A stretch of DNA of 64,000 nt from contig JAHRHZ010000095.1 of the NCBI GenBank assembly GCA_024137785.1, positions 124,001 through 188,000 on the forward strand, written 5' to 3'. The translations under genes and the position numbers were made by a program. The DNA comes from Ginglymostoma cirratum (taxonomy: Eukaryota). The notes beneath the pieces were generated by a model, which did not search any database, was not told where the DNA came from, and saw nothing but the letters and a program-made list of their open reading frames with translations. Positions 15,343-61,923 of this stretch are shown here, piece by piece. Each line of letters opens with the position of its first letter. The stretch's first letter is position 1.

Positions 15343-15417
15343 GCCAAGTTTGCTATTCAGAGAGGTGCCACAGCAGTGATTTTTGATGTAACAGATGATG
15401 CAAGTGCTGTGGGTCAG
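15343..15417 (+). CDS. RNF43: RNF43 coding exon (PA domain), AKFAIQRGATAVIFDVTDDASAVGQ
   Basis: 75-bp phase 0/0 exon with AG and GTAAG boundaries; matches the RNF43/ZNRF3 RGAxAVxFD motif. Confidence 0.93.
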
Positions 15418-16390: not shown

Positions 16391-18832
16391 AAGCCTCTGT
16401 TTAATATCTGAGTAGAAGGACCATACTTATGACAAAGCAGCACTTAGTATAAATACCACTGAAGTATCACCCTAAACTATGGCCTCTGTCCAGAATGCAG
16501 ATCAAGCTTTCAACCTCCATAGACGCAAGAAGGCTATGACTGAGCATGTCTACTACAGAAGTAAAAATCCAAAAACATCAAATATTGCACTTTTGGGTCC
16601 CTTAGTTTAAGCACACACTGAACTGTACAACTGTTCACAACTTGAACACCAAACATTCAGCACTAAGACACACTCATCAGTTCAAGGGTGGATTCTGTTT
16701 TGAAGAGGCTAATTGTAAGAAAGTGGCAAATTATGCAATGGCATGAAGGAATAATGGCAAAGATCAGCTCTTTGAACATTGATATGTGGACATGTGTGAG
16801 TAAAATGCAGCTTTCTCCAATCTGTTACTTTAGCATCATGAGGGGTGGTTGGACTGAACAGGAAAATGTAAGTAGTTCAAAGAGTGTCGCATTTATATAA
16901 CCAGATGTGTGAGATAAACAGGATTAGATTTGTAGATTAGATATTGATACTAATTACAAGTTTGTGTTGTGCCAAGAATTTAAAGCTAAGAGGCATAATT
17001 CAAATTCTATAAAAATAATGTCCAACGTGGATAAATACTTGTATATTATGGAAGAACTGGCTTATTCATTTGAGCTGAGAGCCCACATACTAACTACTAT
17101 AGTTAAATCAGTGAATGGGTGGTACATGTGGTGAGAACTATTCTAAGCTTCACTAGGCATATGACTTTCATATGAGAAACTGAAGTCAATCTGACTTCAG
17201 GACTTTTGTTACACTGAGCAATCAAGTACTAACAGATGGGAAAGCAACACAAAAATCCATTTTTTAAAGGAAAAGACCATTTGGCCAAAATTATTTGTCC
17301 TGCTTTCTGAGTTCAACCAGACCTATGTTTCTGAAGAAACTTATCAAATTGTCTTAACCCCACTGAAATCATTTGCTCAATGTCCTTCTGTAGTAATGTA
17401 GTTAATTAGAGAGCACAGTGAGGAGATTTGAGGAGTTCAAACCTTGACGTTGACATTCTATAAATGTTAATAATTTGGTTACTGTTTCTGTAATTATCAA
17501 AAAGTGGGGTCAATCCCTGTTTTTATGAAAACTGAAGCCTTTACTAAAATGAACAAGTTGCTTGGACGTTTTTTTTTAAATTAATGATAGCACAGAATAA
17601 TCACGTCAAACCCAATAATAGCTTCGGATTGTAAAGCTACCACAAAGAAACTAGGGATACCATGGAAATGGAGGGACTCACCACTGGGCTTATTAAAGTG
17701 TGCTTTGAAGCTAAGATCAAGAGTATACCATGGAGGATGCAATAAATATTAACAGTGGGGAATAATGGAAACCTGTTAAAACTTTGTGACGGGAAAGAAA
17801 ACAGAAAATGTGAAGACCAACACCATAGTAGTTGATTAAGGCGATCATAAAAGATGACTGAGAACCTTGTATAAGTTGGTTGTGGATGTTTTCAATCTGT
17901 TAGAATGTAAAAGGAAAGCTAAAAGTTGATTGTGAGGGGAAATCAAAAGATTCTAAGTAGCTTATGGGATATTCAAGCTCCAACGGACCCTTCGGGTGAA
18001 CCAACTGATTGTAACATAACGGATCAAGAAATTATGGCTGATGTTCCTTCATCAGGCAATTTTCATATTAAGTCTGAAGTTGATCATGCAGATCAGGGAC
18101 ACGCATCTCTTGAATAAAGAGGTCTCGCTACGCCACCTGTTAAAGAGCATCATAGACTCTTCAGAGAGATAAGGAAGCTTACTTCAAGACTGTAGCTAAT
18201 GCTGATGCAAGTTTCATAAGTGCTGGAGCTGTTTGAGAAGAAGACTTTTCATCTAATCCTACAACTGAAAAGTTAATATGTAGTACTGGTAGTAAGGGAA
18301 ATAATTGGTCATTTAATGAGCAGTGTGGTTGAGTGTACAGTCTGGACAAGCTGTAATCAGTATTGTATTCGGCTGTGGGATTCAGATTCTCTCTCTTGCT
18401 GTCTCCACGAGTTGTGTGTTCAGTTTCATGGGGATATGCAGAGTTTACCCATAATGTTCAGTGTTAATGGAATTCTTGTAGCCTTATTGTCCTGTCTTTT
18501 TCTTTAAGAAACATAGGTAAATTCTGCCTCTCTTACTGTGAAAATGAGTCTATGCCAATTTGTAATCCATCTGTGTTTTTATATCATATTGCCCTGAATG
18601 TTGAAGCCTATTTGCATTTGTAAACACTACATTTCTTTTGTCTCCTTGCCATTGGGGTGGTGAACATTTCAAGGAGTGTAAAGCATCAAGTTGTAGACAG
18701 TCTCTGTTAATTCTGTGTTGGTAAAATTTAAATTACAAGTGAAATGCCTGTGAGTATTGCTGAATACAAGATAATTAATCAATCCTCAAATAAGACACTC
18801 CTTTACATGGCTTTTCCTCCTCCTCCTGGTAG

Positions 18833-18973
18833 CTGAAACAGAATCAAGAGGATCTTTTGCCTCGTCCAGTTATCCTGATCCAAGGCCGGGATGCTACCCA
18901 GCTGATGAAGGTCATCAACACCAACGGCGAAGCAGTGGTCAGGATTCATGTCAAGAGTGACAGACTGGGTCGG
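18833..18973 (+). CDS. RNF43: RNF43 coding exon (end of PA domain), LKQNQEDLLPRPVILIQGRDATQLMKVINTNGEAVVRIHVKSDRLGR
   Basis: 141-bp open exon with TAG/GTAAGT boundaries; PVxxIxGxDAxxLM motif of RNF43/ZNRF3. Confidence 0.93.
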
Positions 18974-21548
18974 GTAAGTGTTATGTCAGAAATACGTACC
19001 TCAAGCTCAGCTAAAGACTTGTAGGTCAAGAGGGTGTATTCTTATTAACTATGGATTTGTGTAAGATCCCAAGTCCTGTGTATGCAACCCGACACCAGCA
19101 CAGAACCACATTCAGCCTGGGGACCCACTCAGCCTTCCTGCTGTTTCATCATTTTGGCACATTGTCTAATTAGCAGTAGGTTCATAATATTCAAGTACTG
19201 ATCTGCCTACTCTTGCCTCTTCATTAATGGTTACCTACAGTATCACCTGCAAAGCATTTTCAAGTAACTTATTCAGAATTAATTTCCAACTATTTTCACA
19301 GAGATCGTAAAATTAGGCCACCAAGTGAGCAGGAGGATGTGAGGCTATTGACATAAACTGTATATAAACCTTTTGTGAAATACTTGGTTCTAAAGCCTCT
19401 AAGACAGATGTGGCTTCACCAAGCTAATTATCCCATAACTAATGTGTGGATGGATGTTTCCTGGGGTCTGTCTTTAAGACAGCCTCAAAGTAATTCCCCA
19501 TTGTATATGGTTTTCAATAGAAAGTCTAAAACATTCTAACTAAATCTGGAAGATCTAAGATTGAGGTGGGAAATGTGACTACAGGCTGTAAGCACTTTAA
19601 GATAAACAAAAACCCTTCTCTATTCATTCAACTAAGAGCATTTCCTGAAGCCTTCATTTATTCAGTCGAATAATACTGACCCTCATCAAGCCTACAATGC
19701 CATTCTCACGTAGTCAAAGCTTTATCAGGTTAAAATATTCCAAAATTGGGATAATTCAGGCAAATTATGATCCCAGCTATGTTGGTTGGATTGGATGGAC
19801 TCGCAGGTTACATGTTAAGTAGGTGGGGAAAAAACATGATTTAACGACTCATTCCCTTAACCCATCCACCATTCGTTAAACTTTGACGTATTTTTGTGTG
19901 TTTTAACCTCCTGTTGTGTGGGCTCGTTTTGGGGAAGGGAGATCACATGTGAGCCTTGAATATCTATCACTAAAAGCCAGAGCTATGGGTCAGCGTGAAA
20001 TACTTTCTTACAGGGAATTTGACATTTCTGAGATCTCTTTAAAAAATAAAATCTATAACTTTCCATGGTACGCCAGCCTGTCTCTGTAAAGATTAATCCT
20101 GATTGATGTTTTCATAAATTACCCCACAGAGACTTTTAGAAACAAAGTTTATCACTTTCCAATGAGCAATTCCACCGATTACCTTTCCTCTGCAGAAATA
20201 CATTTAATTGTCTCTATAACCATTTTATACCACCTGCCTTAATGCCCTTTCCCTCACACCTTGTTTCCCCCATTATACTTTGGGTCATTTAAGTACCTTC
20301 AGCATTCTTCCACCAGCACTCTGAAGTTCTATCCCTTAAAAACTTTGCCCGTTTGCCATCTCTTTCCCTGCTGCCCAAAAGATTGTCTTCATTCACTTCT
20401 CCTAAATCCTCTATCATGATTGCTCCCTTCCTCTTCACCACTTGTGAAACCTTGTAGAAGTATTTTTAACCTAGAATGTAAACCATTCAGCACAGTGAGT
20501 AATGTAACTGGACCAATTTTGCTAATTCCCTTTATTTGAAAAACTTTGTTTAGGTCAGCTGAAAATTCCTTTTCCAATAGAAAACAAATCCAATATCTAT
20601 AACCTGTCCTAGTATCTTAAATTGCCAATATCCAGAATCACATATGTTAACCTTCTTTTCCTTCTGAAAAGCAACAGTATTCTTCTGGTTATTGAGTGCT
20701 TTGAACTGCATGTGTCAAATGGGGCATGGGAGGGAATTGAAGGCTGGAACACAGAAGTACATACAAATTCTGACCATTGAAGACTATATCATAAATAACT
20801 GAGTTGAGGGTCACATTCCAATAAGTAGAGCTTTAGCTGCTATAAGTATGAATTGTATCCTTTTCCTTTCCTGTGATCAGCCTTCAGGCAGCTCAGTATT
20901 GGGTTGCTAACTGTTGCTACCTTCCATTATACGAGATGAGACTTGCACGCCTCAGCTACATACTACACATTTGTTTAATTTCTCTTACACAGCAATTCTA
21001 TCAAGTTGCAAATGTGTAGGTGATGGGGAGTGAGTAACAGACAGCTAGTAACTACTGGTAATTATCTTTGATAATTCTGTGACACATTCAGTCTGCAAAG
21101 TATTCTTGGAAATGGTTCCCTGACTGTGTGCCTTCTCCAGTAATGTAATGATGATTTGCTGTCATGGTTTTCTGAATTATTCCTCTGATATTTGTCATCC
21201 ACTCATCTACTAAAAAGGTGATCTGTTGTCCCATGAGAGAAAATTACAAGGGTTGTGATTCCTGTGAAAATTTCTTCAGCACTTAGTCTTGCACACCAGG
21301 TAATGTTCATTATTGTAATACTCAGAACTGAGTGTTTATACCTTTTCTCCCCACCCTCATGCACCCTCATTACTTCCTTAGAGCTTTATTTTTCAAACTG
21401 AACCCGAGATGTTTAATGCCATTTTTAAGATTTTGTTCACTTCATTAGGCCTCTTGTGCTTGTCATTTTTTAACTGAGCCAGTGTTATGCCAAATGATAG
21501 AATAACCTCTAGGTTTCAATCAGTAATCTCTCTTTCTCTCCTCTTCAG

Positions 21549-21650
21549 CCCGCCTACGATGTGGGGATCCTCATGACCCTGATTGTGGCTTTCTCAGTAG
21601 TTGTCATGATCCTGGCGGTGCGAATCAAGTGCAAGCAGAACAGGACTCGG
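21549..21650 (+). CDS. RNF43: RNF43 transmembrane exon, PAYDVGILMTLIVAFSVVVMILAVRIKCKQNRTR
   Basis: 102-bp exon with CAG/GTGAG boundaries; PxYDVxILMT resembles RNF43; hydrophobic helix followed by a basic stop-transfer segment. Confidence 0.95.
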
Positions 21651-22180
21651 GTGAGAGTAGTGCCCTCCAATTTATAGCAGTCTCAGCTGTTAGTTTTCTG
21701 TTAAACTTTAGTCCAGTCGTGTCACTTTGCTTTGGTTTGCATCAGTGAATACTTAATGTTCCTGCATTCACAACTACTCAGGATCTATGTTGTTACCATT
21801 GTGGTACTGATTCAAATTTGGGTTTTGAATTATGCCCTAATAACACTTGTGTTTTCTGAAGGGAGACAAAATACAAATCTGCCAGCCTAAGAGTTGTTTA
21901 ACTGCTTACAATGTGGCGGCAAACTCTCCAGGCTCGACGACTGCTTGGTTTTCGAAATTAAAATTTGATTCTGTTTGAGAGCAAGGTATGATAGAGACAG
22001 TTACAGAATTATTACAGAATTACAGAATCTCTGGGCTGTAAGCAGTGCTTACTGTACTAACAGCTCTGGGCTTCAGTTTCATGTTTGTCCAAGACCAATG
22101 CCATCGGGTTTGGAAAGCTGTAAAAACCCATATATTTTTTTCTATAAGCTGTTGGTACACACTGTAAATATTTCATACCC

Positions 22181-24460
22181 TGATTTGATTTGATTTATTG
22201 TAGTCACGTGTACCTCAGTACAGTGAAAAACTTTGTCTTGCCAGCAGTACAGGCAGATCATATTAAGCAAGGACATACAGATCGTAGAGTGCTGAGATAG
22301 AGTGAGGCATACAGGTTACAGGCACAGGAGGTGCACAAAGCAAGATTTAACATTATTTGAATTTAGAGAGGCCATTCATTAGTCTAATAGCAGCAGGGAA
22401 GAAGCGGTTCTTGAATCTGTTGGCGCATGTGTTCAAGCTTCTGTATCTTCTGCCTTACTGAAGAGGTTAGAAGAGAGCATTTGCCGGGGTGCAACAGGTC
22501 TTTGATGATGTTGGCAGTCTTTCTGCAGCAATGAGAAGTGTAAATGGAGTCCATGGATGGGAGATTGGATTCCATGATGGTCTGGACTGTGCACATAACC
22601 TTATGTAGTTTCTCATGCTCCTGAGCAGAGCAGTTGCCATACCAGGCCGTTATGCACCCGGACAGTATGCTTTCTATGCTGCATCTGTAGAAGTTGGTGA
22701 GGGACCTTATGGACATGTCGAATTTCCTAAGCCACCTGAGGAAGAAGAGGTGTTGTTGTGCCTTCTTGACTGTTGCCTCTACGTGCAAAGTCCAGGACAG
22801 GATGTCAGTTATTGTCACTCTGAGAAACCTGATGCTCCAACCCCCTCTCTGTTGATGTAGATAGAGGCATGTTCTCCTCCTTTCTTCCTGAAGTCAGTTA
22901 CTGACATTGAGAGAGAGGTAGTTATCATTGCACCACAACACCAAGCCCTCTATCTCCTTTCTGTATTCTGACTCATTGTTATTTGATATCCATCCTACCA
23001 CAATGGTGTCCTCAGCAAACATGTAGATGGCCATGTAGATGGCATTTGTTCGGAGTCTGTCTACACAGTCGTGGGTGTACAGGGAGTACAGCAGGGGCTG
23101 GAATACATCCTTGGGGAGGGTTCCAATATTGAGGATTATTGTGGAGGAGGTGCAGTTGTCTATCTTCACTGATTGTAGTCTGTGGGTCAGGAAGCTGAGG
23201 ATTTACTTGCAGAGGGTGGAGCCCAGACCTAGGTCTCGGAGTTTTGAGATCAGTCTGGAGGGAATTATGGTGTTGAAAGCGGAGCTGTAGTCGATGAGCA
23301 GGGGTCTGACATAGATGTCCTAGTTGTCCACATGTTCCAGGGATGAGTGCAGGGCTAGAGAAATGGCGTCCGCTCTGGACCTGTTACATTGGCAGCCTCT
23401 GAAAGCACTTGATGATAATGGAAGTCAGAGCCACTGTGCGGTAGTCATTAAGGCACATTGCATGTGCTTTCTTTGGTCCTGGGATGATGGTAGTCTTGAA
23501 CCAGGTAGGGACTTTGGCTTATAGGAGGGACAGGTTGAAGATGTCACTGAATACCTCCGCCAGCTGTTCCACACAGGATCTAAGTGCACGGCCAGGGACT
23601 CTGTCCAGTCCTGTCGCTTTCCTCGGGTTGACTCTCGGGAAGACTGATCTGATGTCTGCTGTGGTGACAGAGGGAACAGGTGCATTCGGGGCTGTCGGGA
23701 CAGGTGACACTGTGCCCCTGGCATTCTGCTTGAAGCAAGCAAAGAAAGCATTGAGCACATCAGGGAGGGATATATTTTTGTCAGCTATCTTGCTTTGCTT
23801 CATTTTGTATCCCGTTATGTTGTTTAGGCCTTGCCACAGGTGGCGGGTGTCCGGATGGTAGGTTTGGGCCTCTAACTTGGTCTGGAACTACCTCTTGGCA
23901 TCTCTGCTGGCTTTGCAGAATCATATCTGGATTTTCTGTATAGGGCTGAGTCTTCCGACTGGAATGCTGCATGCCTCATCTTCAATAGGCATTGGATTTC
24001 TGGTTCATCCAAAGTCTCCGGTTGGGAAACACTCTGATTGACATCTTTGGCACACAGTCCTCTACGCACTTGCTAATGAAGCCCGTGATGGTGGTGACGC
24101 ACTGGTCTAGGCTTTCTGCTGAGTACTTGAATACGGGTCCAGTCCACCGATTCCAACCAGTCCCGGAGAAGCTCTTCCACTGCCCTAGCCCAGCATTGTA
24201 TTACTTTCTGTGAAGGATCCTCCCGTTTCAGTTTTAGCTTATAAACTGGGAGGAGGAACACAGCACTGTGATCCGACTTTCTGAAGTGTGGACGGGGAAT
24301 GGAGTTTTGGTTGTGTAGCAGTAGTCCAGGATGTTCGGTCCTCCAGTGGGACAGGAAACGTGTTGGTAGTATTTTCACAGCACCATCTAGAGGTTGGACT
24401 GGTTAAAGTCGCCAGCCACGAAGAATAAGGTCTTGGGGAATTTGGAAGTGATAACTTGAC
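22181..24460 (-). mobile_element. Rex1/Babar-type LINE, decayed (endonuclease end, RT, 3' tail)
   Basis: - strand ORF pieces KKAQQHLFFLRWLRKF..LTNFYRCSIESILSGCITAWYGNC, PLLYSLYTHDC, KATGLDRVPGRALRSCVEQLAEVFSDIFNLSL and SDHSAVFLLP; 3' end AATAAA(TCAAA)n. Confidence 0.9.
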
Positions 24461-25098
24461 CAAGAAGGAGATGCTCCTCTTAGTTTCAGATTAAAGCATG
24501 AGATGCTTTATGGGATCTTTTCAATTCGATGCTTTAAGACTTCCTCGGAACCAAAAGACACAACAGATGATGAGCATTTAAAAAGGAACAGAGCAAGGGA
24601 ATGGAAAAGGAACCAACCACATGCACAGAAAAATAAATTGAATGGTTTTTAGCGTGCTCAGGTAGAGAATGAGAGACGGTCAAAATGATATTCAGAACGG
24701 AAAAAGGGAAGTAAGGTATGAATAAAGCATATGATGAGGCACTGGGTCTGAACAGTTAATGGAAAGGTTAAAAGGGAATTATGCAAACTGGCAAAGAGGA
24801 ACAGATTGAAGTGACCCAGGAGTGGAAGAGAAAAGTGGTTTTGCATAAAGGTTGCAGATGTGTTGTGACTGGAACATGTCCCTCACATACAACCTACTCA
24901 TTCTCCACTTACTTGACGATATAAGCATGTCCTCCCTCTAGTAACTCAAAGTAAACTGGAGGTGTAGTGAAGAGAAAAGATTGTTGAAGCCAAAGTTAAA
25001 ACTAAAAGACTGCTTATATCTCGTGGGAAGATGAGGTCAGTCATAGATTTTCTTTTCCCTTATTCAGTTTGGACCTTGAGCAAGCTTGTCATGTTTCC

Positions 25099-25385
25099 CA
25101 GGCCCTCTCCCCTCTCCCGAATCCCCTTCTCCCCTCACCCCTATCCCTGCTTCCTTCCCTCTCCCATCTCCTTCCCCCTTCACTCCCATTCCCCCTCTTC
25201 CCCCTCACCTCTGTCTCCCCTTCCCCCCAGCCCATCCCTTTCCCCTTGCCCTCCCACTCAACCCCCAGCCCCCTCTCCCTGTCCTTGCTCCCCAGCTCCC
25301 TTCCCCAACACCCTCCCTCGCCATCACCCCTTCCCCCTCTTCCCCCCCTTCCCCCTCTTCTCACTTCCTCCCTCTCCTCTCTAGC
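25099..25385. repeat. Long polypyrimidine (C/T-rich) low-complexity tract
   Basis: About 290 bp composed almost entirely of C and T; the overlapping Pro-rich and Gly/Arg-rich ORFs are compositional artefacts. Confidence 0.9.
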
Positions 25386-26114
25386 ATAAAAACCCCCATG
25401 TCCTCCTCTTCCAACTCAACTGCTCCTCTACTCAAATTGTCACCTAGCTTCAGTGTGATCCTGCAGCTAAATTTATCTGGAAATCTCTCATTCCCTTTCA
25501 TCTGTTATATCCAAAGGATGCAAAATTGAGCACATCTGTTGTACCATCAACGTAGTTAGTCATCCCTTGCTAGGTTACATCAAGTGGTATTAGAATGTCT
25601 CTCCTACAGCAAAATCACTCACTCAAAAGCAAATGACTCATTTTCTTTACTAAAGGCTGTACTGTTTATAAAGGCAATTTGTTGCAGCTAATTCTTCCAG
25701 CCCTGATAGAGTCAATAAAATTCCTCATAGTTACTGAAAGCTTTGCACGCCTGTGTCCCAGTCTTGACTTTCTAAATGTATGATGATCTTCCCCAGCCCT
25801 CAATCTCCCACATTCTCATGTGTAAATAAACACCTTTGAAAGCTGTCGGACCTGTATAATACAGGAGAGGTGATAACTCTGAATAATTTATGCTATTATA
25901 AATGAATGACTCTTGCTGATAATAATCCAAGAGTCCAAGGAGTATGGTGTTGCAGACTGGCTATTCAATTGTGTTGTGCTATTCAACTATTCAGGAGAGA
26001 ACTGTTCCAACTTCACAAATGATAGGTTGGGGTGCTCTTTGGAGGTTCAGTGTAGACTGGCTGGACCAAATGGTCTCTTTCTAGTCTATTCTCAATGTCA
26101 TCCTTTTTCAACAG

Positions 26115-26285
26115 AATTCCTTGCAGCAGCAGACTATCAATGCGATTAGCCAACTCGCCACCAGACGTTATCAATCACGGCGTCAGTCTCAGGGTCATGA
26201 GCATCAGAACAGCTTGGATTCACAGAGTAGCAATGTTTCGGAGCCAGTCTGTGCTATCTGCCTGGAGGAGTTTGCTGATGGGCAG
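26115..26285 (+). CDS. RNF43: RNF43 exon, linker and first half of RING-H2, [20 protein letters not shown]...[15 protein letters not shown]
   Basis: 171-bp exon with CAG/GTGAG boundaries; [11 protein letters not shown] and [10 protein letters not shown] are characteristic of RNF43 rather than ZNRF3. Confidence 0.97.
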
Positions 26286-26842
26286 GTGAGAAAAATCCAT
26301 AGTAGATTGAACTGGAAAGGCTGAATAACAGAAATCTTCATTGTCATAAATTGGCTTAATTTCTCATCCTGTTATCTTTCAGTGAATGTTTGTCCCCAAT
26401 TAGATTTTTGATTCTTGTTTATGTTACCATGTATTTGTATTTAAAATTTATTTGTACAATATATCGAAACATCGTGAGTTCTGGATTGTCAATGTGCAAA
26501 CTTCTACCATCTAAAAAGGATCAGATTACTAGTTTGAATTCTGGTATGAGAAGAAAGAACGGTGTTCTAGCTTGCCTTCCTAGTTTGCCTACCGGAGAGC
26601 AAGGAGATTTTGATCTGACTGGGCTTGAGTTAAAGCTACAATAAACCTTTGGTCATTAAATTCCTCTGATTTTTTTTTTAATATCACCTGTTGCATGATG
26701 CTCCAGCCTTCCTGAAGCTGATCCAGGATGTTTGGTAAAAGAATCTCACTCACAGTCCGCACTGCTCTGTTAAGTAGATGACTCTTGCTGTCCATGTGCC
26801 TTGTGTTCACCAGAATGCATTGCTTATCCTATGGTTGATTGA

Positions 26843-26974
<132 letters not shown>

Positions 26975-27729
26975 TAGTTTAGGCATTTTTGAGGAAAGCA
27001 GATGATGCTGTTGGTTTGGTAAATGGTAGGGGCAGAAATGGCTGGAATGAAACAGTCTGATGTAAATTGTAATTTACACGAAGCAGTGTCTGTGTCTCTG
27101 AAAGCAGTGACTTTGGTAGACCTAATATAAGTAGTACCTGTTTCATTCTAAGCTGTACTGAGACAGCAAGTGTGATTTTTACCTTACTAGCTGAAGTGAT
27201 ATCAGAACAGATCTGAAATCGTGCGGGCAATTTTCAAACAATTGAACTGAATAAAAATTGCTTTCCTCTCAGTCTTCAACAGCACTGTCTAATGCTGTGG
27301 TCAATGTTCACATTTGCTTCACTCTCATATAAAGCTAGAATGAATTTGGAGTAAAAGTGGCAACGTTCAAACCTCTGCTGTTGCTGCTGGTGGATTGTGA
27401 TTAAAATTACAAATGAATAAATGCTAAACAAGTCCAGTTTTACAGCTTTGGTTTGTTGCACAGCCCAATCTTTGAGAAGCCAAAGTAAATCATCTGCAAG
27501 CACATGCAGGGGTAGAATGTGTTCCAGGTCCAGCTGTAATGAAAATTGAGAGCTATGTCTAAGTTCACATGTGACTCAATGGCCTACCTTGTACTCATTG
27601 TTTTATAGACAAGTCCCATTCTGCCATAAAGCTGTAATGGCCCATGAGCTTTAGGAATGTAATTGAAGATCAAAGGAAATATTTGGCCTCAGTAGTTGCT
27701 AATGGTTCATTATTCCATTTTATTTTCAG

Positions 27730-29322
27730 AAGGTAATTCTTCAATTCCACAACAGGAAGCTCACCATCAAGCCAATCCAGCTGCTCAACTAAATCAGCGT
27801 ATCCATTTGCTGAGGCGTTACCCTGGCCATGCACACCTTCACAGGCCAAACACTGCCATTCCTTCCAGGCCTCCTCGTTTGAACAATCCCAGAACTCCAG
27901 GAATGCAAATTGCTCCCCCTGACCATTACTTTGTTACCCCAGAAGCCTATCGTGCAGGATTTAATGCCGTGAGATATGTGGCCTCAAGGCCGCAACAATC
28001 TTTAAACTTGCATAGGTGCAACTATCGTCATGCTGATGGCCAAGGAGTTTTCTACAGACACCAGAGACCCATTACTGTACGAAAAGGCCCACCATGGCCG
28101 GACCAAGTTCTTCATCACCGATGTCTGCATAAACCTCCCTGCTGGCCACAGCAACTTTCAGCATGCAATGCCCCACCATCTTCACATCATTCAAAGCCTA
28201 ACTGTGCTCCTGATCATTCACAGATCACCAGCAACCTTGACCACCACAGCTTCTCAGGGGACAGTTTTGGTATTAACTGTTCAGTGAAAAGTGGATACCT
28301 GGCAGACAGCCCAGGTAGTGATTCCAGCTCAGGTCCTTGCCACTGCTCCTCCAGTGATTCAACACTGGACTGCACAGACATCAGCAACCAGTGTACTTAT
28401 GGGAGCCAGTCAACTTTCCGCAGCTCTCTGAGCAGTGAGTATGATCCCCTTGTATACTGTGGGGTGGGTGGGGAAACTATGAAGAGTTCATCCTTTGAAG
28501 TCCAGAGACCCAGGTCCATGGACTCAGTTAATGGTCCTCTGGAAGACCATGCGTTTAGCCACACTCACTACCACCATCATCGGCACCATCACTATGGCGA
28601 TGCTGACCCAAGTCCTGAAGGAGCGCAATGTATGAACCCTGGCTGGAGCTCAGCAGAGAAGCGGGAAAACAAACAGTTGGAGGAGTTCATGAATGATAAT
28701 CTACACTGCCAGCCTGAGGCAGAGTTCAGCTGCCAATCCCAGTACACTGCTCATTCTGTCCAGTGCCCCTACATGGAGCAGCACCTATTACTTTCCCCTG
28801 GACTTTGCCTTCCTGAAACATCCCTGCAAACTATGGATGGGGAAAGGAGAAAGAGTGAGGTAGTTTGTGCCAAACCAGATAAAGTGCCTTCAGAAAATAA
28901 ATCCAATCGGACCAGCAACAGGAGGAGGCGAAGGAGGAGGAAAAGAAATTTCCAAATGGATCAGCCAGTAGTTTACTTCCATCAGGACTGTGATACTCTG
29001 GAGGACTGTAGAGTACATATTCATTATGGGAACCGTGGGAGGCAATGCCGTCTTCCAAATGTTCAGCCATCAGTGCCAATCCCTTTAATCCTTAACAATG
29101 GAGCCTCTAATGGATGGAGTTTCCCATTTTGTGAGTGTCCTAGCTCCCTCTGTCAGCAACGACTGTGTCAGGTTGGTTCTGAGCCACAGCTGGCAGAAGA
29201 GCAGTACATGAACAACAATGAGCCACGACACACATTTCAAGAGAACTATACTGAAGGATATCGTGATGGAGTACAATTACAAGACGAGTCCTTCCACTGC
29301 CATACAATCCCTAACAATCCAG
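27730..29322 (+). CDS. RNF43: RNF43 large cytoplasmic-tail exon (Ser-rich, His-rich and basic segments)
   Basis: 1593-bp open phase 1/1 exon within ORF 27696..29330. It contains [41 protein letters not shown] and [12 protein letters not shown], both conserved in RNF43. Confidence 0.95.
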
Positions 29323-29639
29323 GTAGATAAGAGTGCATGTATTCCTTTAGAAGAAAGACAGAAATATTTTTGATTTGTCAAAAATAGATTATTGTCTGTA
29401 TGACATTTTCAGCTTGTAGTTTTTTTTTCTGGAAACAGCTTTAGCAGGGTAGTGAACCACAGTAATGAGGCCATTTTGTAAAAGAGTAGTGCAGTAGTTT
29501 CCATGTGGTGTGAAGAGTCCAAGGAAAGTGTAGTAAGGGATCCCAAGGTGCTAAATGCATTGAGTGCCAGGGGCAGATTTCAGCAAACCGAATAAACATT
29601 GAAAGTATTGTCAGTGATTGACTATGGATTTTTAATACA

Positions 29640-30690
29640 ATTCAATACAGCACTGGAACAGGCCGTTCGGCTCACTAAGCCTGCGCCAATTCCTATTCCT
29701 TATTTAGACCTGCTACCTATTGCCCATATGCAGTTTCTATCCTGCTGTTTGCCTCCCTTCCACATGTCTATCAAGATATGCCTTAAACATTGCTAACATG
29801 CTGGCTTCCACCAGCTTCACTGGCAGTGCGTTCCAGACATCCACCACCCTCTGTGTAAAAAACTTTCTCCTGCACTTCTCTTCTAAACTTCTGCCCTCTT
29901 ACCTTGAACTTGTGCCCTTTTGTAGTTGCACTTTCCACTGTGGGAAAAAGCCTCTCTGACTATCAACCCTATCTGTGCCTCTCATAATTTTGTAGACCTC
30001 TATCAGGTCGCACCTCAGTCTCCATCTTTCCAGTGAAAACAATCTCAGTTTATTCCACTTCTCCACATAACTCCAGACTAAGCAATATCCTGGTAAACCT
30101 TCTCTGCACCTTCTCTAAAGCATCCACGTCCTTCTGGTATTGCGGCAACCAGAACCACACACAGTATTCCAAATGTGGCCTAACTAAAGTTTTGTACAGC
30201 TGTAACATAACTTGCTGACTTTTATATTTGCTGCTCTGGCTGATGAAGGTAAGCGTGCTGTATGACTTCACGACCCTTATCTACCAGTGTTGCCACTTTT
30301 ATGGATCTTTGGCCCTGGATGCCTAGATCCCTAAATCCTTCTATGTCTTTGCTCCTAAGGGTTCTGCCATTTATTGCATAATTTGCACCTGAATTTGATC
30401 TTCCAAAATGCATCACCACATATTTGTCCAGATTAAACTCCACCTGCCATTTTGTTGCCAAAATCTGCAATCGATCTATATCCTGCTGTATCCTTTGACA
30501 ATCCTCCACACTATCTGCAACTCTACCAATTATGGTGTCATCTGCAAACCTACTAATCAGACCACCTACATTTCCCTCCAGATCAGTTATATAGTTTACA
30601 AACGACAAAGGGCCCAGCACTGATCCCTGCAGAAGTTACTGACTTCCCTTCCAAAAAGCACCCTTCCACCACTCTCTGTCTTCTGGCATT
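29640..30690 (-). mobile_element. CR1-type LINE 3' portion
   Basis: ORF pieces LGPLSFVNYITDL..ISRFADDT and LYKTLVRPHLEYCVWFW..LEKVQRRFTR. Confidence 0.9.
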
Positions 30691-33995: not shown

Positions 33996-34710
33996 TAAGC
34001 TTCCTGCCTGTAAGAGGTCTTGGCAGCACAGGACACTTTCCACATGAAAAGGGCCCTCACCACAATATCACCCTCACAGCAAGAATATATCTAATGTAGG
34101 AAATGGAAACATGACTAGTGCTGCAGCCAGAGTAGTTTTATGTTGGGGATCTTTACTCTGGACCTAATGTGTGACTGTGTGCATCACTGGCAAGACCAGA
34201 ATTTGTTACCCATTCTGCTTGCCTTTGAGAAGGTTTTGGGAGCCTTGTTGGAACCTTGATCGCAGCAGTGCATTTTGCAAGGAAACATGAATCGTGCATT
34301 AGGAATGGAACATGAACTGTGTTACACCTGATCTGGAATAATTGATGCTAACATTCTATCATTGAAATGAATAGTTCTTTGTTCTCTAGAAATTACATAC
34401 TTCGTCTTTAGAAAATATTTGCAAAACAAAATTTCATCATTTTTGTTCTAGCATACTGATTATGCTCCATTTCAAATTGTGTAAATGTGCAGAATCAATC
34501 TTTGCTGTGTTTTAGCAAGAGGATATTTGCTCTACTGTGCAAATTTTCCTCTCTTGTTACAAGATTGTTTTTGAGATTGAGGTCAGCAACTCTTAATTCA
34601 GGATACATTATCCATGTTATTTAGAGCTTTCAATTCAGCTGAACAGAACAATTCATGTAAAGCACTGGAAGTTTTTCAAAATGCCTGATGATGTTTTTCT
34701 ATCCAAGTAG

Positions 34711-34754
34711 GTTCAGAATCAAATATGGAAGAGATCTGTGAAGAAGCTGTGTAG
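34711..34754 (+). CDS. RNF43: RNF43 terminal coding exon, (G)SESNMEEICEEAV*
   Basis: Phase-1 acceptor, 44 coding nt ending in TAG; resembles the human RNF43 C-terminus GSEEELEELCEQAV. Confidence 0.92.
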
Positions 34755-39620: not shown

Positions 39621-39764
39621 AAAGTAATGAAGTAAGGTGGAAGGTAGCTTATGCAAAGTGCATGAATAATGACATAGGCTAATTGTGTCAGATGGCCTGT
39701 TTATGTAAATTCTAAGCAAATATCCTGTAATAATTGCACTGGATTGCTTGACTAGGTAGATAAA

Positions 39765-39856
39765 AGCAAGATGCTGCACAAACTCAGCAGGTCTGGCAGC
39801 ATCCGTGGAGGGAGAAACAGAGTTAATGTTTTTGAGTTGGATAAGACTCCAGAACT
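39765..39856 (-). mobile_element. Penelope-like pLTR half-element (subfamily B), ribozyme core degenerate
   Basis: aactcagcaggtctggcagcatccgtggagggagaaacagagttaatgttt matches the left arm of 61707-61923. Confidence 0.65.
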
Positions 39857-40979
39857 AAATGGACTGGAAAATTGTACTTTTACGAGTTTATCTATGAACA
39901 GTTCAGACAATGCACAATATAGTTATAAATACATTATCATCTGGAAGATGTCTTAGTCCCTTTGTAAGGATGGACAAGAGGAAGACCAAAGAAAGGCCCA
40001 ATCTGGTCTAATATAGAAGGGTAATCAGGGACAAGTAAGTTTTCTTTTCTTTTGAAGATAAAAATGGATGGAGAGTGTTGGGTGCTTTAAATCTATCTCA
40101 CTCAAAAATGAAAAGGCATTAGATAAATGGGAAGTAAGACTATTCCATATTGAAAAGCAATCAAGTGGAAATTGGATTGAAGGAATGAAGGAAGAATTGA
40201 GGGAATAAAGGGCAATGTTTAAGGTTTGAAGGCAGTCATCAATTTTTACAAATGTTTATGTGGGATAAGGCAAGCATGATAACCTCACATTATTAGTGCA
40301 AGACAGTCTCTGTGAATTTGGTTGTTCACTTTGTGAAAACCACTTGAATGAGTGAAAAGTGTGGGGATTTCCTTGTACTTCAGAGCTGCTGAGTGCAGAG
40401 TTTAGTTCGCTGTGTCAGAAGCCTGGCAAAACAATGTATATATATATCCAAAAACTGTGTACACCAATTAGTCTAGCATTTGGATTTTAATGAAACTTCT
40501 TAAAAAGGTTAACCCTTAAATGAATGCAACAAATTCAATAGCTCTGTGACCCACTGATGTGATGTTTTTGTTTCCAGGTTTGAATCTCTCTCGCACAAAG
40601 GATTGCTTGCACATTATACCATGTGTATAGTCAGTCACAAACAAATTCAGTTCAGTCAGTGGTAAAATGTTGTCTCTGTTCTTCCATCATGATTTCAATG
40701 CCAATATTAACTGATGCAGTTTTCAGAAGTAATAGATTGAAGGATTTAATGAAAAAGCTGGTGGTGTGGTGACATTTTGATCTCTGGGATTTCTTCAATG
40801 TTCCCTAATTCTACATTCAGAAGGACTTGCATTTATTTATGTCAGGACTTTTATCGGCGGCAACAACAACATTATATTCAACTACAATATGTAACCACAT
40901 AGCTAGAATAGCTCCAATATCACCATTACCAGCTCGCTAGGGAAGGAGCGGCATCCGGCATAACTAAAAACGATAGGTC

Positions 40980-43699: not shown

Positions 43700-43930
43700 C
43701 TATTTTCAACCACTCCATCTCTATTATCACCATCCCTTCTTCCCTGACTTACTACCAACAGCCCTTTCTCTCTCTCTCTCTGGGCTTCTTCTTTGCCTAT
43801 CCATTCCTTTTCACCCCTCCTAGCTTATTTATTTTCCTTGCCGTTTCTAGTTCTGAAAAAGGGTCACTAGCTCAGAAACATTTACTCTATTTTATCTTCA
43901 CAGATACCGCCAGAATCTGCTGAGTTTCTC
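43700..43930 (+). mobile_element. Penelope-like pLTR fragment with upstream pyrimidine-rich region and a degenerate hammerhead core
   Basis: agttctgaaaaagggtcactagctcagaaacatttactct..cacagataccgccagaatctgctgagtttctc resembles 2737-2840. Confidence 0.55.
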
Positions 43931-46157
43931 TGTGTGTTTCCTTTAGCTACAGCTGGTTTCAATACATATTTCTGTAAGATTTTTTCTTTCCTATCTAGGC
44001 ATCTAATGAATATATTAAAAAGACATTTGCCAGATACAAGCTCATTCCTCCATTCAGTTTGGATCTTCCTGCAAACTTCATATTTTCTGTGAGCCTGCAG
44101 AAAGTTCCCCAGTACTTTTGATCAAGTCTCTGATAAATATGGGGAACAGTGACGCTAACACTAATTCCTGGAGGACGTCATTTATGACCAAACCTTGACA
44201 AAACAGCCAGTGTCAATATGAATGCAACCAGCTCCTTTCCAACCTGAAAACTACTTATGAATTCAACCTTTCTTAGTAGTCTATTGTTCAGCAACTGGTT
44301 GAAGATTTTTTAAAATCAAAATAGATTCAACCAGGGCTGACCACTACCAAACTAGGAAACCAAATTGTTCAAATAATTTAATTTGGTGAGACAGTGGCCA
44401 TGTTGGGACTCTAATAGCCTTTCTGTGTAGAGTTGTTGGTATCGTGGTCCTTTCCAGCAATCGGCTAACAATAAAGCATAGCCCCTATACCTTTGCACAG
44501 CCTCAAATGCATGCGATAAGAGTTAGCAACCAACACTGCCTCTTCTGACCAGGCCTATGTCCATGCCTATATCTATTTTAGCAGCAAATCTACAATGTGT
44601 TCCTTGTGACTGCTATAAAAATGTAATTGGGAACATCTGCCATATATTGATCTCAAACCAATTATTTAATGGTCTCATTTAATTTGTAATGAACCTTCCA
44701 TTTGTAAACTAAAAGGAGAATTTATTTCTTAATTAAACCTTTCAAAACACAGGGCATGTCAAAATGTATTAACAACCAATTAAGTAGTTTATGCTCCCTG
44801 TGTAGGAAACATGGTGGACAATTTATCCACAACAAGCTCCCAAAACCATTGTGACAATGATCAGTTAATCTGTTTCGGTGCTACTTGTGGGATAAGTAGG
44901 CGTTGAAATCATTAACAAAGACTATGCTGCTGCATTAAATCCTCATTTAAACTTGTGACTGTGTTCCTGAAAATTACAACTTTTGAGTTAAATGATTTTA
45001 AGAGAAGCATTGGTTCCTATGGAAAGCAATGTCATAACTGGAGTTGAGTTCTATGAGCCTTCCCTTATGAGAAAAAAGCTACAACATTATTTAAAATGTT
45101 TTGCATTACTAGCTTCCCTTGCACTGGTAAATTAAGTCATTTAATTTTTTTCATTACAAATTAAAGAAAATGATTTTCTACAATCCTTTTGCTCACTGCA
45201 AATCCTGCTGCCTGATCCCCCTAGTCTCTGCAGATCCTTCCCCTCCAATACTCTCTAACTTGTGATCTCTCCACTCCCTGACCCTCAGAATGGAGACGGA
45301 CTCAGCAGTACCTGTGATCTGCACCAGCGAGCCTTCACTCTGTCAGGTTCCAGACTGCCTGCTTGCGTTGCCACTTGTTGCTGGCTACACTGTAGTCGCT
45401 GTTGATAGCATTGTTTTGAAACACAGCCCGGTATCTTGCTGGCTGCCACCTGCTCGGTCATGTTGGAGCTTCTCCTCTTGACTAGCTGCAGGACCTTGGC
45501 CTTCCTCACTGTCCCCCTGGCCAGCTAGGCTAGGATAGGCCTCGGGCACATTTCCCAGGGAGTCAGGTATGGGAAGAGGCTGCAGATGGAACTGGATTCA
45601 AGTCAGACGAGGAGAGACCAATTTGTAAGGAAAGACAAAGGATCATTATTTTAAATTGTTCGATGTCAGAAGCTGATGCTTTTCTCAATGAAGAGTTACT
45701 TTTGGTATGGGCTGGTATCTTAGGTATCAAACACCAGTTTGTTAAACTTCAAGAAGAACTAGCTTCTGAGAGTGGGGGGTCGGGCGGAGGGTCATTACCC
45801 CCTGTCAGAGGCAGAACGTTCAGGACCACTGTGATCTCCAAGATCAGTCAGAGAGAAAGATTACCTTCCCTGCCCCCAACACCAATAACTGGATTTGTAG
45901 TGATTTCTACACTCGTCCAAGAGACTCTAGGTTATTGGATGAAGTACAATGGGTACATTGTGAATACAAAGTATCACAATTACATGAGACAGGTTGGACA
46001 GACCAGAGGGTCATTCTAGTACGTTCAAATCATTGAAGTGCCTTGATTCCTCTCTAACTGTTTCGGGGGGAAAGAAGTTCTCCTGATCCCAAGAATTGAT
46101 CCCTTTTGTGAAAGTTACAAAAATAATGATCACCAGTGAATCAGGTAGGTGGCCACG

Positions 46158-46547: not shown

Positions 46548-46612
46548 TCAGTTATGAGATATATTTGTTTGTCAAAGATGATGTTTCCGGATGCTAAAAT
46601 AAAACAACTTCT

Positions 46613-46800
46613 CATGCTGGGAACCTGCAACAAAAGCAGAAATTGCCAGAGAAACTGAGCAGGCCTGTTATCATCTGTGGAGAGAGAAACAGAATTAATG
46701 TTTCAGATGTAGTTTCCTGAAAACTGTTTGAAAGAAGGGTCATTGGACCCAAAACATTAATTCTGCTTTCTCTCCACAAAAACTGCCAGACCAGCATTCT
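46613..46800. mobile_element. Older subfamily B fold-back element, interrupted by the subfamily A element
   Basis: Inverted arms (gtggagagagaaacagaattaatgtttc / aaaacattaattctgctttctctccac) with a degenerate GGGTC-ATTG-GACCC stem II. Confidence 0.7.
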
Positions 46801-46943
46801 GAGATAAAAGGTACTGCAGATGCTGGAGAATCCGAGATAACAAGCATGGGGCTGAATGAACACAGCAGGTCAAGCAGCATCATAGGAGCAGGAAAACTTG
46901 ACGTTTCGGGCCTAAACCCTTCATCAGATTTTCTGATGAAGGG

Positions 46944-47343
46944 NNNNNNNNNNNNNNNNNNNNNNNNNNNNNNNNNNNNNNNNNNNNNNNNNNNNNNNNN
47001 NNNNNNNNNNNNNNNNNNNNNNNNNNNNNNNNNNNNNNNNNNNNNNNNNNNNNNNNNNNNNNNNNNNNNNNNNNNNNNNNNNNNNNNNNNNNNNNNNNNN
47101 NNNNNNNNNNNNNNNNNNNNNNNNNNNNNNNNNNNNNNNNNNNNNNNNNNNNNNNNNNNNNNNNNNNNNNNNNNNNNNNNNNNNNNNNNNNNNNNNNNNN
47201 NNNNNNNNNNNNNNNNNNNNNNNNNNNNNNNNNNNNNNNNNNNNNNNNNNNNNNNNNNNNNNNNNNNNNNNNNNNNNNNNNNNNNNNNNNNNNNNNNNNN
47301 NNNNNNNNNNNNNNNNNNNNNNNNNNNNNNNNNNNNNNNNNNN
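46944..47343. other. Assembly gap (400 N)
   Basis: Run of N, flanked on both sides by the same 27-mer. Confidence 1.
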
Positions 47344-47359
47344 CCCTTCATCAGATTTT

Positions 47360-47387
47360 CTGATGAAGGGTTTAGGCCCGAAACGTC
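47360..47387 (+). ncRNA. Minimal type I hammerhead ribozyme core (mirror copy on - at 46927-46900)
   Basis: CTGATGA-A-GGGT-TTAG-GCCC-GAAAC-GTC: all core nucleotides, stem II, a loop-less ACGT stem III and a GUC triplet. Stem I is weak. Confidence 0.65.
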
Positions 47388-48084
47388 AAGTTTTCCTGCT
47401 CCTATGATGCTGCTTGACCTGCTGTGTTCATCCAGCCCCATGCTTGTTATCTCAGACCAGCATTCTGTTTATGTTTCTGTTTCTAGATACACATGGCTGG
47501 ATGCCAAATGTCGTTGACCAAGGGTGAGACAGTTGACTCTGCTGAGTTTTCTGTGAATCAATTATTATTGTTTGGTCCAAGTTTTTCCACTCATTTGGTC
47601 AAGTCTTTCCATTAGTTTTATTTTGTTGGCACATTGCTTTGTTGCTTGCTTTGTTAAATCAGCTGAAAGTCACAGCCAAGTCAAATGTCTGGACATCGAT
47701 TCAAACTTCAACTTTCTTCACAACAACAGTTTAACGGGTAAAAGCACCAAGCCATAAAAGCCAGGAAGCTAAGGTTCACTCTCTGCTTTGTGGTCAGTTA
47801 CTGTTTATAGGGAGGATGCTCCAACTGCCTCTCATCTCTTGAAATCAGCTTTCCCCCTGCATCTAATCACTGCCAGTGACGCTTGCTACAAAAATGTGTG
47901 ATTGTATGGAAGGGGTCTCAGTTGATGCTCACTGTCTATGCTCACATCTGAAACATGGCCATTTTGGTATTGAAGGGGCTGTTAATAGGCTGGATTTTAT
48001 GATTTCCAGATGGAGTAAAGAGTCAGAAATGCAAGTGTTTGATTTACTTACCTCCTTCATCGCTATCTCAATACAGCTATGATT

Positions 48085-48870
48085 AGTGGTGATGGGTGGG
48101 AGGGAATATTTGTGGATGTGGTGTCAATCAAGCGGGCTGCTTTGTCTTGGATGGTGTCAAGCTTTTTGAGTGTTGTTGGAACTGCACTCATCCAGGCAAG
48201 TGCGGAGTATTCTATCACACTCCTGACTTGTGCCTTGTAGATGGTGGACAGGCTTTGGAGAGTCAGGAGCTAAGTTATTTGCTGCAGGATTCCTAACCTT
48301 TGAACTGGTCTTGTGCATGGCCAAGTAGAGGTTGCCAGGCAGTAAAGTGACCAAGTGGCATTGGGCAGAGAGCCCCTCTTTCCAATCAGGCATCAATGGC
48401 AGGGTATTAGGCTGCTGAGGTTGTGAACTGGAAGTCAGTTACAACCATAAATTTTAAATATTCCCTGTCCTCTCACTCCTTATTTCTGAAATCAGCCTAA
48501 AACAAAATTGAAAAGCCGAAATCCACTACTAGCCAAAAGCTACCACCTTCATTCGCATACCAGAAACTGCACAACCCATACTAAATACTGTGATTACAAG
48601 ACCAGGTCAAAGGTTAGGAATCCTGCAGCAAATAACTTAGCTCCTTCCAAACCAACAACCAGTTCCATCTAGAGGGACCAGAGTAGCTAGTACATGGGGG
48701 AACACCATCACCTGAAAGTTGCTCTCCAAGCCACTTACCATCCTGATTTGGAAATACTTCACCATTCCTTCAGCGTCATTTGGTCAAAATCCCAGAATTC
48801 CTTCCCTATGGGCATTACGGGTCAGTCTAAAGCAGATGGACTGCAACAGTTCAAGAAGGCAACTCACCAC
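48085..48870. mobile_element. Rearranged family X LINE 3' end (- strand piece 48085-48314, + strand piece 48575-48870)
   Basis: The - piece reads YKAQVRSVIEYSALAWMSAVPTTLKKLDTIQDKAARLI; the + piece has the preceding segment and the 3' UTR. Confidence 0.75.
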
Positions 48871-48898
48871 TGAGAGGACTTGGCCATGGTGAAGTTCT

Positions 48899-49113
48899 GG
48901 GATAGCAGGAACTGCAGATGCTGGAGAATCTGAGACAACAAGGTGTAGAGCTGGATGAACACAGCAGGCCAAGCAACATCAGAGGGGCAGGAAGGTTGAC
49001 ATTTTGGGCCTAGAAATTTCTGAAGAAGGGTCTAGGCCCGAAACGTCAGCCTTCCTGCTCCTCTGATGCTGCTTGGCCTGCTGTGTTCATCCAGCTGTGC
49101 ACCTTGTTATCTC
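48899..49113. mobile_element. Fold-back Penelope-like mini-element (subfamily A) with a hammerhead core on +
   Basis: Arms 48932-49014 and 49031-49113; 33-nt extension; 13-bp TSD ATGGTGAAGTTCT at 48886-48898 and 49114-49126; CTGAAGA-A-GGGT-CTAG-GCCC-GAAAC-GTC at 49020-49047. Confidence 0.88.
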
Positions 49114-49547
49114 ATGGTGAAGTTCTAACTGGAGCAGGGGTGGAGTGAGGATCAGTGATCAGTGACTGGGCAAAGGGTGAGCTCAAGAGAGTATTCTGGG
49201 CACTGGGACTGGGGCAATTTGGAACTGAAGAAAAGTCTATGTAGATGTTTAAGAGAAGGACTGAAATTGCAAAAGCAAACGATTGTTTAGAAATAGAGAT
49301 GACAGTCCCATTTATAAAGGTGATTAATTCCTAATGAACCTCTGCATCTTTCACTTTCATGTTTCCAAACTGGCTGGAGATGTACAGAAGCAGGAGAGTG
49401 CAATGATGAGTCCAATATCCATTGAATGCTCATTTTGACAGATAAAGAACTGTAATGTTATGTAGTAAACCATAAAATACTGGACAAAAAGCAATCCAAA
49501 AATGGCTAAAATGCGGATGGTCTTTTATAAAATCAAACAAATGGTCA

Positions 49548-56570: not shown

Positions 56571-57110
56571 ATGCAGTAATCTTCTGTAGGAAAAGAGCCT
56601 GTTTTTATTATACTGCCACAAATTTTTTCTCTATTGCTCGAGAGAAAGCAGATGTTGAAGATTCCCAACAGGAAAAAGGGTGGTAGAAGCAAATCTACAA
56701 GATTGATTTTACACCATGATAAGTTGTGGAGAAGGTAAAGAGGTATTATTTTTCTCTCAGAGGGGCATTAATCTGTGGATCTCTCTTCCCTAAAGAGCAG
56801 TGGAGTCATTGAATATTTTTAAGGTTGAATTAAATAGTTAATATCTGATGAAGAATCACCAGGCTTGAAATGTGGACTATGGGTTTCTCCTCACAGATGC
56901 TACCACACCTGCTGAGTTTGGCCAGCAATTTTTTTTTTGTTTTCTATAGCCAATTCACTGACAATGAAGTTAAAATTTATATGGGATAGACAGGCAAGTA
57001 GAGGACGGAATCAAACCACCATAATCTTATCAAATGGTAGAGCAGGCTGAGGGGATGAATAACTTGGCCTATTCCTGTGTTGTATGTTTGTATGAGAGAC
57101 TGGCTCATAC

Positions 57111-61706: not shown

Positions 61707-61923
61707 TAAAACCAAAAGAACTGCAGATGCTGTAAATCAGGAACAAAAACAAAGTTGCTGGAGAAGCTCAGCAGGTCTGGCAGCATTTGTGAAGGAAAAA
61801 ACAGAGTTAACATTTCCGGTCCGGGTTCTGAGGAAGAGTCACCAGACCTGGAAAGTTAACTCAGTTTTAGCCTTCACAGATGCTGCCAGACCTGCTGAAC
61901 TTCTCCAGCAACTTTGTTTTTGT
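61707..61923. mobile_element. Fold-back Penelope-like mini-element (subfamily B), ribozyme core degenerate
   Basis: ~70-bp inverted arms, ~35-nt extension containing ACTGCAGATGCTG, CTGAGGA at 61828-61834, and an imperfect 15-bp TSD (61692-61706 / 61924-61938). Confidence 0.8.

Follow-up and report, generated by a model that had tools for sequence, protein, structure and literature searches.

How does a short DNA insertion without a gene of its own come to be built as a hairpin with a hammerhead ribozyme motif at its centre? The question is raised by a 64,000-nt stretch of the shark Ginglymostoma cirratum (assembly GCA_024137785.1, contig JAHRHZ010000095.1, positions 124,001 to 188,000 of the forward strand; hereafter the window), in which a first-pass annotation had pointed out two such insertions and had read them as Penelope-like derivatives of fixed architecture, moving through a self-cleaving RNA. 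The feature is real and rightly tied to Penelope-like elements (PLEs); its architecture is a known one, and the mechanism is in need of revision. The insertions are very probably products, without an open reading frame (ORF), of an endonuclease-bearing PLE, consisting of a tail, an inverted pseudo-long terminal repeat (pLTR) and a pLTR, with no body between them. Here it is proposed, with modest confidence, that an uncleaved single-arm RNA is primed twice, once per nicked strand, and that the hairpin is rebuilt at each insertion. The two insertions, copies 1 and 2 of a family called here A, are laid out as follows.

46788-46800: left target-site duplication (TSD) of copy 1, 13-bp core, up to 15 bp (46787-46801)
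46801-46833, minus strand: tail of copy 1, 33 nt, the 3'-most part of the unit, on this arm only
46834-46934, minus strand: left arm of copy 1, with its sense on the minus strand, ending 7 nt upstream of the hammerhead core
46900-46927, minus strand: minimal hammerhead of the copy 1 left arm, core to cleavage triplet
46944-47343: assembly gap of 400 N inside copy 1; the 27-nt centre at 46917-46943 recurs at 47344-47370
47359-47453, plus strand: right arm of copy 1, without tail
47360-47387, plus strand: minimal hammerhead of the copy 1 right arm, core to cleavage triplet
47454-47466: right TSD of copy 1, 13-bp core, up to 15 bp (47453-47467)
48886-48898: left TSD of copy 2, 13-bp core, up to 14 bp (48885-48898)
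48899-48931, minus strand: tail of copy 2, 33 nt, left side only
48932-49014, minus strand: left arm of copy 2, stopping in loop II, without the 5' half of the hammerhead
49015-49113, plus strand: right unit of copy 2, without tail, its first 16 nt without left-arm counterpart
49020-49047, plus strand: minimal hammerhead of copy 2, core to cleavage triplet
49114-49126: right TSD of copy 2, 13-bp core, up to 14 bp (49113-49126)

Both insertions were recovered where they had been annotated (46801-47453 and 48899-49113), with exact 13-bp TSDs (0 mismatches, scores of 15 for copy 1 and 14 for copy 2 versus a best score of 8 among 150 random position pairs), an extension of 33 nt on the left side only (46801-46833 and 48899-48931) and inverted arms that are complementary at 94/95 nt in copy 1 and 75/83 nt in copy 2. 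Read in the hammerhead sense, a unit comprises the ribozyme, about 65 nt, the arm end at 93-95 nt past the core start and, optionally, the tail. The inverted repeats are not flush with the TSDs, the long arms being offset by the tail; in copy 1, a 7-bp inverted motif alone forms the outermost part and is flush, because the tail end (46801-46807) repeats the 7-nt arm-end motif (47447-47453). The fixed architecture that had been claimed holds at the ends and breaks down at the centre, as both arms of copy 1 reach the hammerhead core, unlike those of copy 2, where the left arm goes no further than loop II and the right unit has 16 nt to itself. Copy 2 measures 215 bp. Copy 1 is interrupted by the 400-N gap, the content of which is unseen, and measures 226 bp only if the 27-nt overlap across the gap is collapsed.

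The motif was searched with a descriptor derived from the metazoan PLE consensus (supplement of PMC4209133), namely the core CUGANGAH, a stem II closed by a G-C pair, GAAA, a 2-nt palindrome and a UH triplet, which matched five sites in the window versus none in 200 dinucleotide shuffles. Intact cores lie at 47360 (plus), 46927 (minus) and 49020 (plus), in agreement with the annotated hammerheads on both strands of copy 1 and on the plus strand of copy 2, as well as at 7385 (minus) and 2743 (plus); they represent four of the five family-A arms plus one unit of a related family, B. Helix I, for which about 3 bp or more would be expected, has 4 contiguous base pairs at 2743, 3 at 47360, 2 at 49020 and 1 at 46927 and 7385, with a bulged helix I of 1+5 bp possible at 46927. 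Over nine arms, 80% of the cells in hammerhead stems I and II are paired, versus 13-45% for slid partners. For a dimer of the hammerhead, the form in which it would cleave itself, the computed intermolecular duplex is weak, with a predicted 4-6 bp and -3.1 to -5.5 kcal/mol. The exact pattern had no matches in prokaryotic genomes, and a scan of the window with Rfam returned no hammerhead family among its six matches at E<=5, a silence that the missing helix III presumably explains. Sub-threshold microRNA (miRNA) hairpins proposed by Rfam at 61745-61920, 46675-46778 and 48964-49082 were rejected as false leads, being matches to the palindromes.

Further units of both families were found in the window.

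7292-7392, minus strand: third family-A unit (copy 3), a single arm without tail, intact hammerhead (core 7385), no convincing TSD
46596-46800: family-B fold-back, older, decayed and tailed; copy 1 sits in its right arm; no TSD above background
61707-61923: family-B fold-back, gap-free, 217 bp in length, with a tail of about 36 nt; its left arm ends in loop II and its right unit starts at helix I
2686-2838, plus strand: family-B insertion with a unit from 2739 and the best-formed hammerhead (helix I of 4 bp, stem II of 5 bp)
39756-39857, minus strand: family-B single arm, decayed, marginal TSD
43849-43942, plus strand: family-B single arm, decayed, TSD not found
56841-56944, plus strand: family-B single arm, decayed, TSD not found

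Family B, present at six places, is related to family A (cross-matches within the window at E of about 1e-6 to 7e-4), and the two families together form nine sites of body-less insertions in 64 kb, about 1.4 kb altogether. The TSD scores above all 150 random pairs in four of the nine candidate insertions and not in the other five; in addition to copies 1 and 2, the TSD of 61707-61923 has 15 bp with 2 mismatches (61692-61706/61924-61938), the hammerhead core of this insertion being decayed, and that of 2686-2838 has 12 bp with 1 mismatch (2674-2685/2839-2850). Head-to-head inverted arms were found in copies 1 and 2 and in 61707-61923, with one-sided tails of 33, 33 and about 36 nt and total lengths that are alike (226, 215 and 217 bp). 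The possibility that copy 1 is a mere assembly artefact was rejected because the gap-free copy 2 and the insertion at 61707 show the same plan. The assembly may account in part for how nearly identical the arms of copy 1 are.

Several smaller observations concern the same units. The right-arm remainder of the family-B fold-back at 46596-46800 lies at about 47467-47486, beyond the nested copy 1, a nesting that recalls PLE insertions into or beside earlier copies (PMC6765202). The family-B tail end (61707-61716) repeats a looser, T-rich arm-end motif (61914-61923); this repetition and the 7-nt one of copy 1 look as if a common sequence signal served both start sites of reverse transcription. A 6-bp pairing between arm and tail, enclosing the arm end, is predicted in both families (tailed arms 46801-46892, 48899-48991, 61707-61805 and 46596-46693, all on the minus strand). 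The stretch 2686-2738 contains two tandem inverted pieces of about 20 nt that, by eye, resemble the family-B tail end, which suggests repeated abortive priming.

The assignment to PLEs rests on architecture and motif, because no autonomous PLE with these arms was found. All elements of the annotated structure, that is, an inverted pLTR, a one-sided tail, a TSD and a minimal hammerhead, are present, which bears out the earlier view of ORF-less Penelope derivatives rather than miniature inverted-repeat transposable elements, or MITEs. Published PLE insertions carry an inverted 5'-truncated copy beside the pLTR and, at one of their ends only, a tail of 30-40 bp (PMC8557442), and rotifer PLEs have a 31-bp tail, 8-10-bp TSDs and a head-to-head orientation (PMC3846280). 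The endonuclease-positive PLEs (Penelope/Poseidon and Neptune; PMC8557442, PMC3846280) thus share with the shark insertions the inverted 5'-truncated copy, the one-sided tail of 30-40 nt, the TSD and the pLTR hammerhead, whereas the shark insertions have no ORF and no second direct pLTR, the whole insertion measures 150-226 bp, and the TSDs are 12-15 bp long versus 8-10 bp in the rotifer examples (PMC3846280). The architecture itself is already in print, and the shark copies are the body-less form of this published end structure. Metazoan PLE minimal type I hammerheads (PMC4209133) sit in the pLTRs and have the same core, the extra base before stem II, the G-C closing pair and the 2-nt palindrome replacing helix III; dispersed singles and opposite-strand pairs, as found in the window, have been reported there as well. 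In comparison, helix I is weak in shark family A, and no shark is among the species in the cited supplement parts (PMC4209133).

Three other kinds of element come close. PAc, a Poseidon of Anolis carolinensis (PMC11167929), has a hammerhead and, about 100 nt on, two 3' end points between which a tail lies, and is the template for the mechanism proposed below; it is autonomous, its ORF starts at its hammerhead, its likeness to the shark units is judged from its described layout, and the cited parts of the paper report no head-to-head products. An ATG within the hammerhead core of the third family-A unit (7290-7382, minus strand) likewise opens a stop-free frame of 31 codons through the arm, which has a gene model of the whale shark as its only database match. 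Animal non-LTR retrozymes (PMC7761336; bioRxiv 10.64898/2026.07.22.740005) are also short, non-coding, furnished with a type I hammerhead, related to pLTRs and thought to be mobilised by PLEs, and a tandem-repeat survey has found pLTR-related retrozymes in vertebrates including the one chondrichthyan sampled (bioRxiv 10.64898/2026.07.22.740005); however, retrozymes are head-to-tail tandem repeats with circular RNAs, whereas the shark units are dispersed head-to-head pairs or single arms, some of them tailed. The putative non-autonomous Chlamys PLEs such as MRC1 (PMC8557442) are also ORF-less and keep the 3' end, but belong to a green-algal clade, have no canonical hammerheads and often form head-to-tail arrays. 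Fold-back PLE derivatives of sharks were not described in any paper among the matches listed by literature searches, whose scope lay outside Repbase, Dfam and subscription journals, and the family may be already named; a motif search of 12 of the 24 readable supplement files of PMC8455134, on whale shark repeats, gave no match, and the summary table there has no Penelope entry.

How the hairpin is made is the point at which the earlier reading has to change. The fold-back as a self-cleaving mobile RNA is disfavoured because the ribozyme would be buried, the sequence upstream of the cut site is kept, the arms have no side-specific columns and the junctions differ. A whole copy 2 transcript is predicted to fold at -163 kcal/mol with a stem II pairing probability of 0.000, and the predicted cost of forcing the hammerhead fold is about 36 kcal/mol in this fold-back and between 0.5 (unit at 2739) and 11 kcal/mol (copy 1 left arm) in a single-arm RNA. 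All five intact motifs (5/5) retain the 28-30 nt that precede the cut site. In the five family-A arms, 21 of the 83 common columns are variable, with 11 copy-specific (in about six clusters), none side-specific and 10 singletons or other, copy- and side-specific changes being compared in only two two-armed copies; the gap-free copy 2 has three variants that are common to its two arms and absent from copies 1 and 3. The junctions differ in all four tailed, TSD-flanked insertions, and in three of these (copy 2, 61707 and 2686) it is the tailed arm that is shorter at the centre, so neither arm can be a plain copy of the other.

The units also appear to begin at a set place. In the six family-B units the common sequence reaches 3-4 nt upstream of the core (GTT in five of the six) and then fades, and these bases are the 5' strand of helix I; in family A, about 7 nt upstream are common to three of the four intact units and can pair in the bulged helix I. 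As judged from the sequence, a fixed start at the 5' edge of helix I, a point other than the cleavage site, is suggestive of either a short source RNA or a ribozyme that acts as a strong stop; with six units in one family and three in the other, it is a lead and not a result.

From the four results against a fold-back RNA, together with the chemistry of the anole PLE, we infer an uncut single-arm RNA that is primed twice. In the anole system (PMC11167929), the one PLE tested in vitro, cutting and extension take place on both DNA strands, two internal sites bounding the tail serve as starts of reverse transcription, the protein is modelled as a dimer, and, in vitro, hammerhead mutants insert normally and uncut RNA is the main substrate. 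The mobile RNA of the shark families would most likely be one arm and not the hairpin, comprising the hammerhead, about 65 nt to the arm end and a tail of 33-36 nt, and would be used uncleaved. Its transcription would start at the 5' edge of helix I, and a PLE protein acting in trans would nick both strands about 13-15 bp apart, a stagger deduced from the TSD. Each 3' end would then prime reverse transcription, one at the tail end and the other at the arm end 33 nt upstream, two start sites presumably being used on opposite strands in one event. One complementary DNA (cDNA) would usually reach the 5' end of the RNA and the other often stop early, and the two would join head-to-head, often over a few shared bases, so that the hairpin would be rebuilt at each insertion. 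The hammerhead would be an inherited part of the pLTR, with a role in RNA pairing or later processing more likely than in the release of the mobile RNA. Double priming, once from each nick, resembles L1 twin priming.

A bolder extension, to be regarded as speculative and rather doubtful, gives sharks dedicated SINE-like (short interspersed nuclear element) mini-PLE RNAs, about 135 nt long, with a 5' end exactly at the helix I start. Two of these RNAs, joined through the palindromic helix III of the ribozyme in its uncut state, would bind a dimeric PLE protein and be copied simultaneously from the two nicks, and fold-backs whose tailed arm is complete would re-seed the family through outward transcription from the centre. 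The hammerhead would then be an RNA dimerisation module for two-ended integration, which, if true, would account for the inverted pLTR of all PLEs and for their tail on one side.

A number of results weigh against the reading as PLE products primed twice, beginning with the small sample of four TSD-flanked, tailed insertions; the four single arms (7292, 39756, 43849 and 56841) have no tail and no clear TSD. The elements, of 150-226 bp, contain no ORF for a reverse transcriptase (RT) with GIY-YIG (the 400-N gap of copy 1 being unseen), and the autonomous RT and GIY-YIG partner that the first-pass annotation had in view did not appear: a Pfam scan of the 168 N-free ORFs of at least 68 amino acids in the window gave no GIY-YIG and one RVT_1 fragment (30225-30635), and searches with the arm translations led only to two short gene models, in which no RT or endonuclease was shown. 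One of these, a whale shark gene model of 103 aa that includes the arm frame, was the single match of a two-sequence arm profile among 1.84 billion representatives, and the other, a 193-aa EukProt gene model without Pfam domains, was found with the family-B translation (one of two candidates); comparison of the arm translation with longer proteins supported none of seven candidates, and an ESM Atlas search gave no usable match. Covariation of the hammerhead stems over nine arms, also suggested as a check, does not exceed that of shuffles (125/500 reach the score), no gain in stability over shuffles is seen in the single-arm folds (z of -0.1 to -1.2), and the 6-bp arm-tail stem has no compensatory changes in four sequences. 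The test in family B did not reproduce the within-copy co-variation of the arms, as 8/75 sites separate the two arms of 61707 and 7/74 separate its left arm from the unit at 2739, and subfamily masters, gene conversion of the palindrome or, in copy 1, the assembly could be the source of the co-variation. Central deletions after insertion could mimic early stops, and one of the six family-B units (56845) is without the shared upstream bases.

The explanation that stands next to double priming keeps the same insertion chemistry and does without a mini-RNA, taking the units as extreme 5'-truncations of full-length PLE transcripts, in which copying stalls at the hammerhead or its dimer after the last 100-135 nt. 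This is a possible, if less probable, account. PLEs are typically 5'-truncated with an inverted truncated copy (PMC8557442, PMC8969392), most genomic minimal hammerheads are dispersed singles ascribed to truncated PLEs, with some opposite-strand pairs 100-700 bp apart (PMC4209133), and the tailed arms of the window end at variable points, as truncation would have it; on the other hand, upstream extension into PLE body sequence is seen in no unit of the window, and five of the six family-B starts fall within a few bases, unlike random truncation, a pattern that a strong structural stop could also produce.

Snap-back self-priming, in which a single cDNA folds on a short terminal palindrome and copies itself into the inverted arm, is unlikely. 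Self-priming at palindromic inverted junctions has been proposed for rotifer PLEs (PMC3846280); copy 1 fits it, copy 2 has a 10-nt palindrome at its junction, and within-copy co-variation would be predicted here too. Against it, each arm has sequence absent from the other in three of the four insertions (the tail versus the hammerhead's 5' half), which rules out copying of one arm from the other except where a later deletion removed the centre.

Very unlikely is the model of the first-pass annotation, by which a fold-back of about 220 nt is transcribed whole, freed by hammerhead self-cleavage and reinserted as a unit. The weak cleavage of PLE minimal hammerheads as dimers (PMC4209133, PMC6765202) would suit it, whereas cleavage is dispensable in the anole system (PMC11167929). 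The intact cores in four of the five family-A arms and the similar lengths would suit it as well, but the ribozyme buried in the predicted -163 kcal/mol hairpin, the retained sequence upstream of the cut site, the lack of side-specific columns and the differing junctions all speak against it. Least credible of all is a MITE or foldback DNA transposon with the arms as terminal inverted repeats and a hammerhead-like centre that is passive or due to chance. Such elements are also small, ORF-less, hairpin-forming and TSD-flanked, with long inverted arms to which the outermost 7 bp of copy 1, inverted and flush with the TSDs, could be added. In the shark units, by contrast, a one-sided tail of 33-36 nt separates the long arms from the TSD, single arms, unequal junctions and within-copy arm co-variation occur, the ribozyme motif is absent from 200 shuffles yet present in two diverged families, and the TSDs of 12-15 bp are longer, to our knowledge, than those of the common cut-and-paste superfamilies.

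The origin of the inverted pLTRs and one-sided tails of PLEs has been described as unresolved (PMC8557442), and their minimal hammerheads as having an unknown role (PMC7761336). The body-less insertions hold only an inverted pLTR, a tail and a hammerhead, and provide a clean setting for the formation of PLE ends; the 64-kb window alone has nine sites, so that a single long-read genome of a shark should yield copies enough to tell double priming and snap-back apart by their counts. For practical work, hairpins of this kind can fall on assembly gaps, as copy 1 does, attract false miRNA matches, find their way into gene models and be mislabelled as MITEs.

The window is a shark RNF43 locus; its large exon shares 85% identity with Hemiscyllium ocellatum and 78% with Cetorhinus maximus, which supports the shark origin. 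The RNF43 coding exons were found at 15319-29324 (plus strand), with the last exon as a weak 14-aa match at 34710-34751 (E 6.7), and, by these matches, copies 1 and 2 probably lie 12-14 kb downstream of the RNF43 coding end. The units at 2739 and 7292 are upstream of the first RNF43 exon matched and are possibly intronic. Between copies 1 and 2, a 50-nt inverted repeat (98%; 48265-48314 and 48596-48645, 281 nt apart) lies in sequence that looks like a long interspersed nuclear element (LINE) and that we take to be CR1-like. Broken LINE-like coding remnants occur on the minus strand at 22384-24402, with an ALKBH8_N match and presumably Rex1/Babar-like, and at 30225-30635, with the RVT_1 match. 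Two pairs of dispersed repeats, 37962-38258/58347-58682 (69% identical) and 31878-32099/35635-35859 (79% identical), are probably SINE or LINE fragments.

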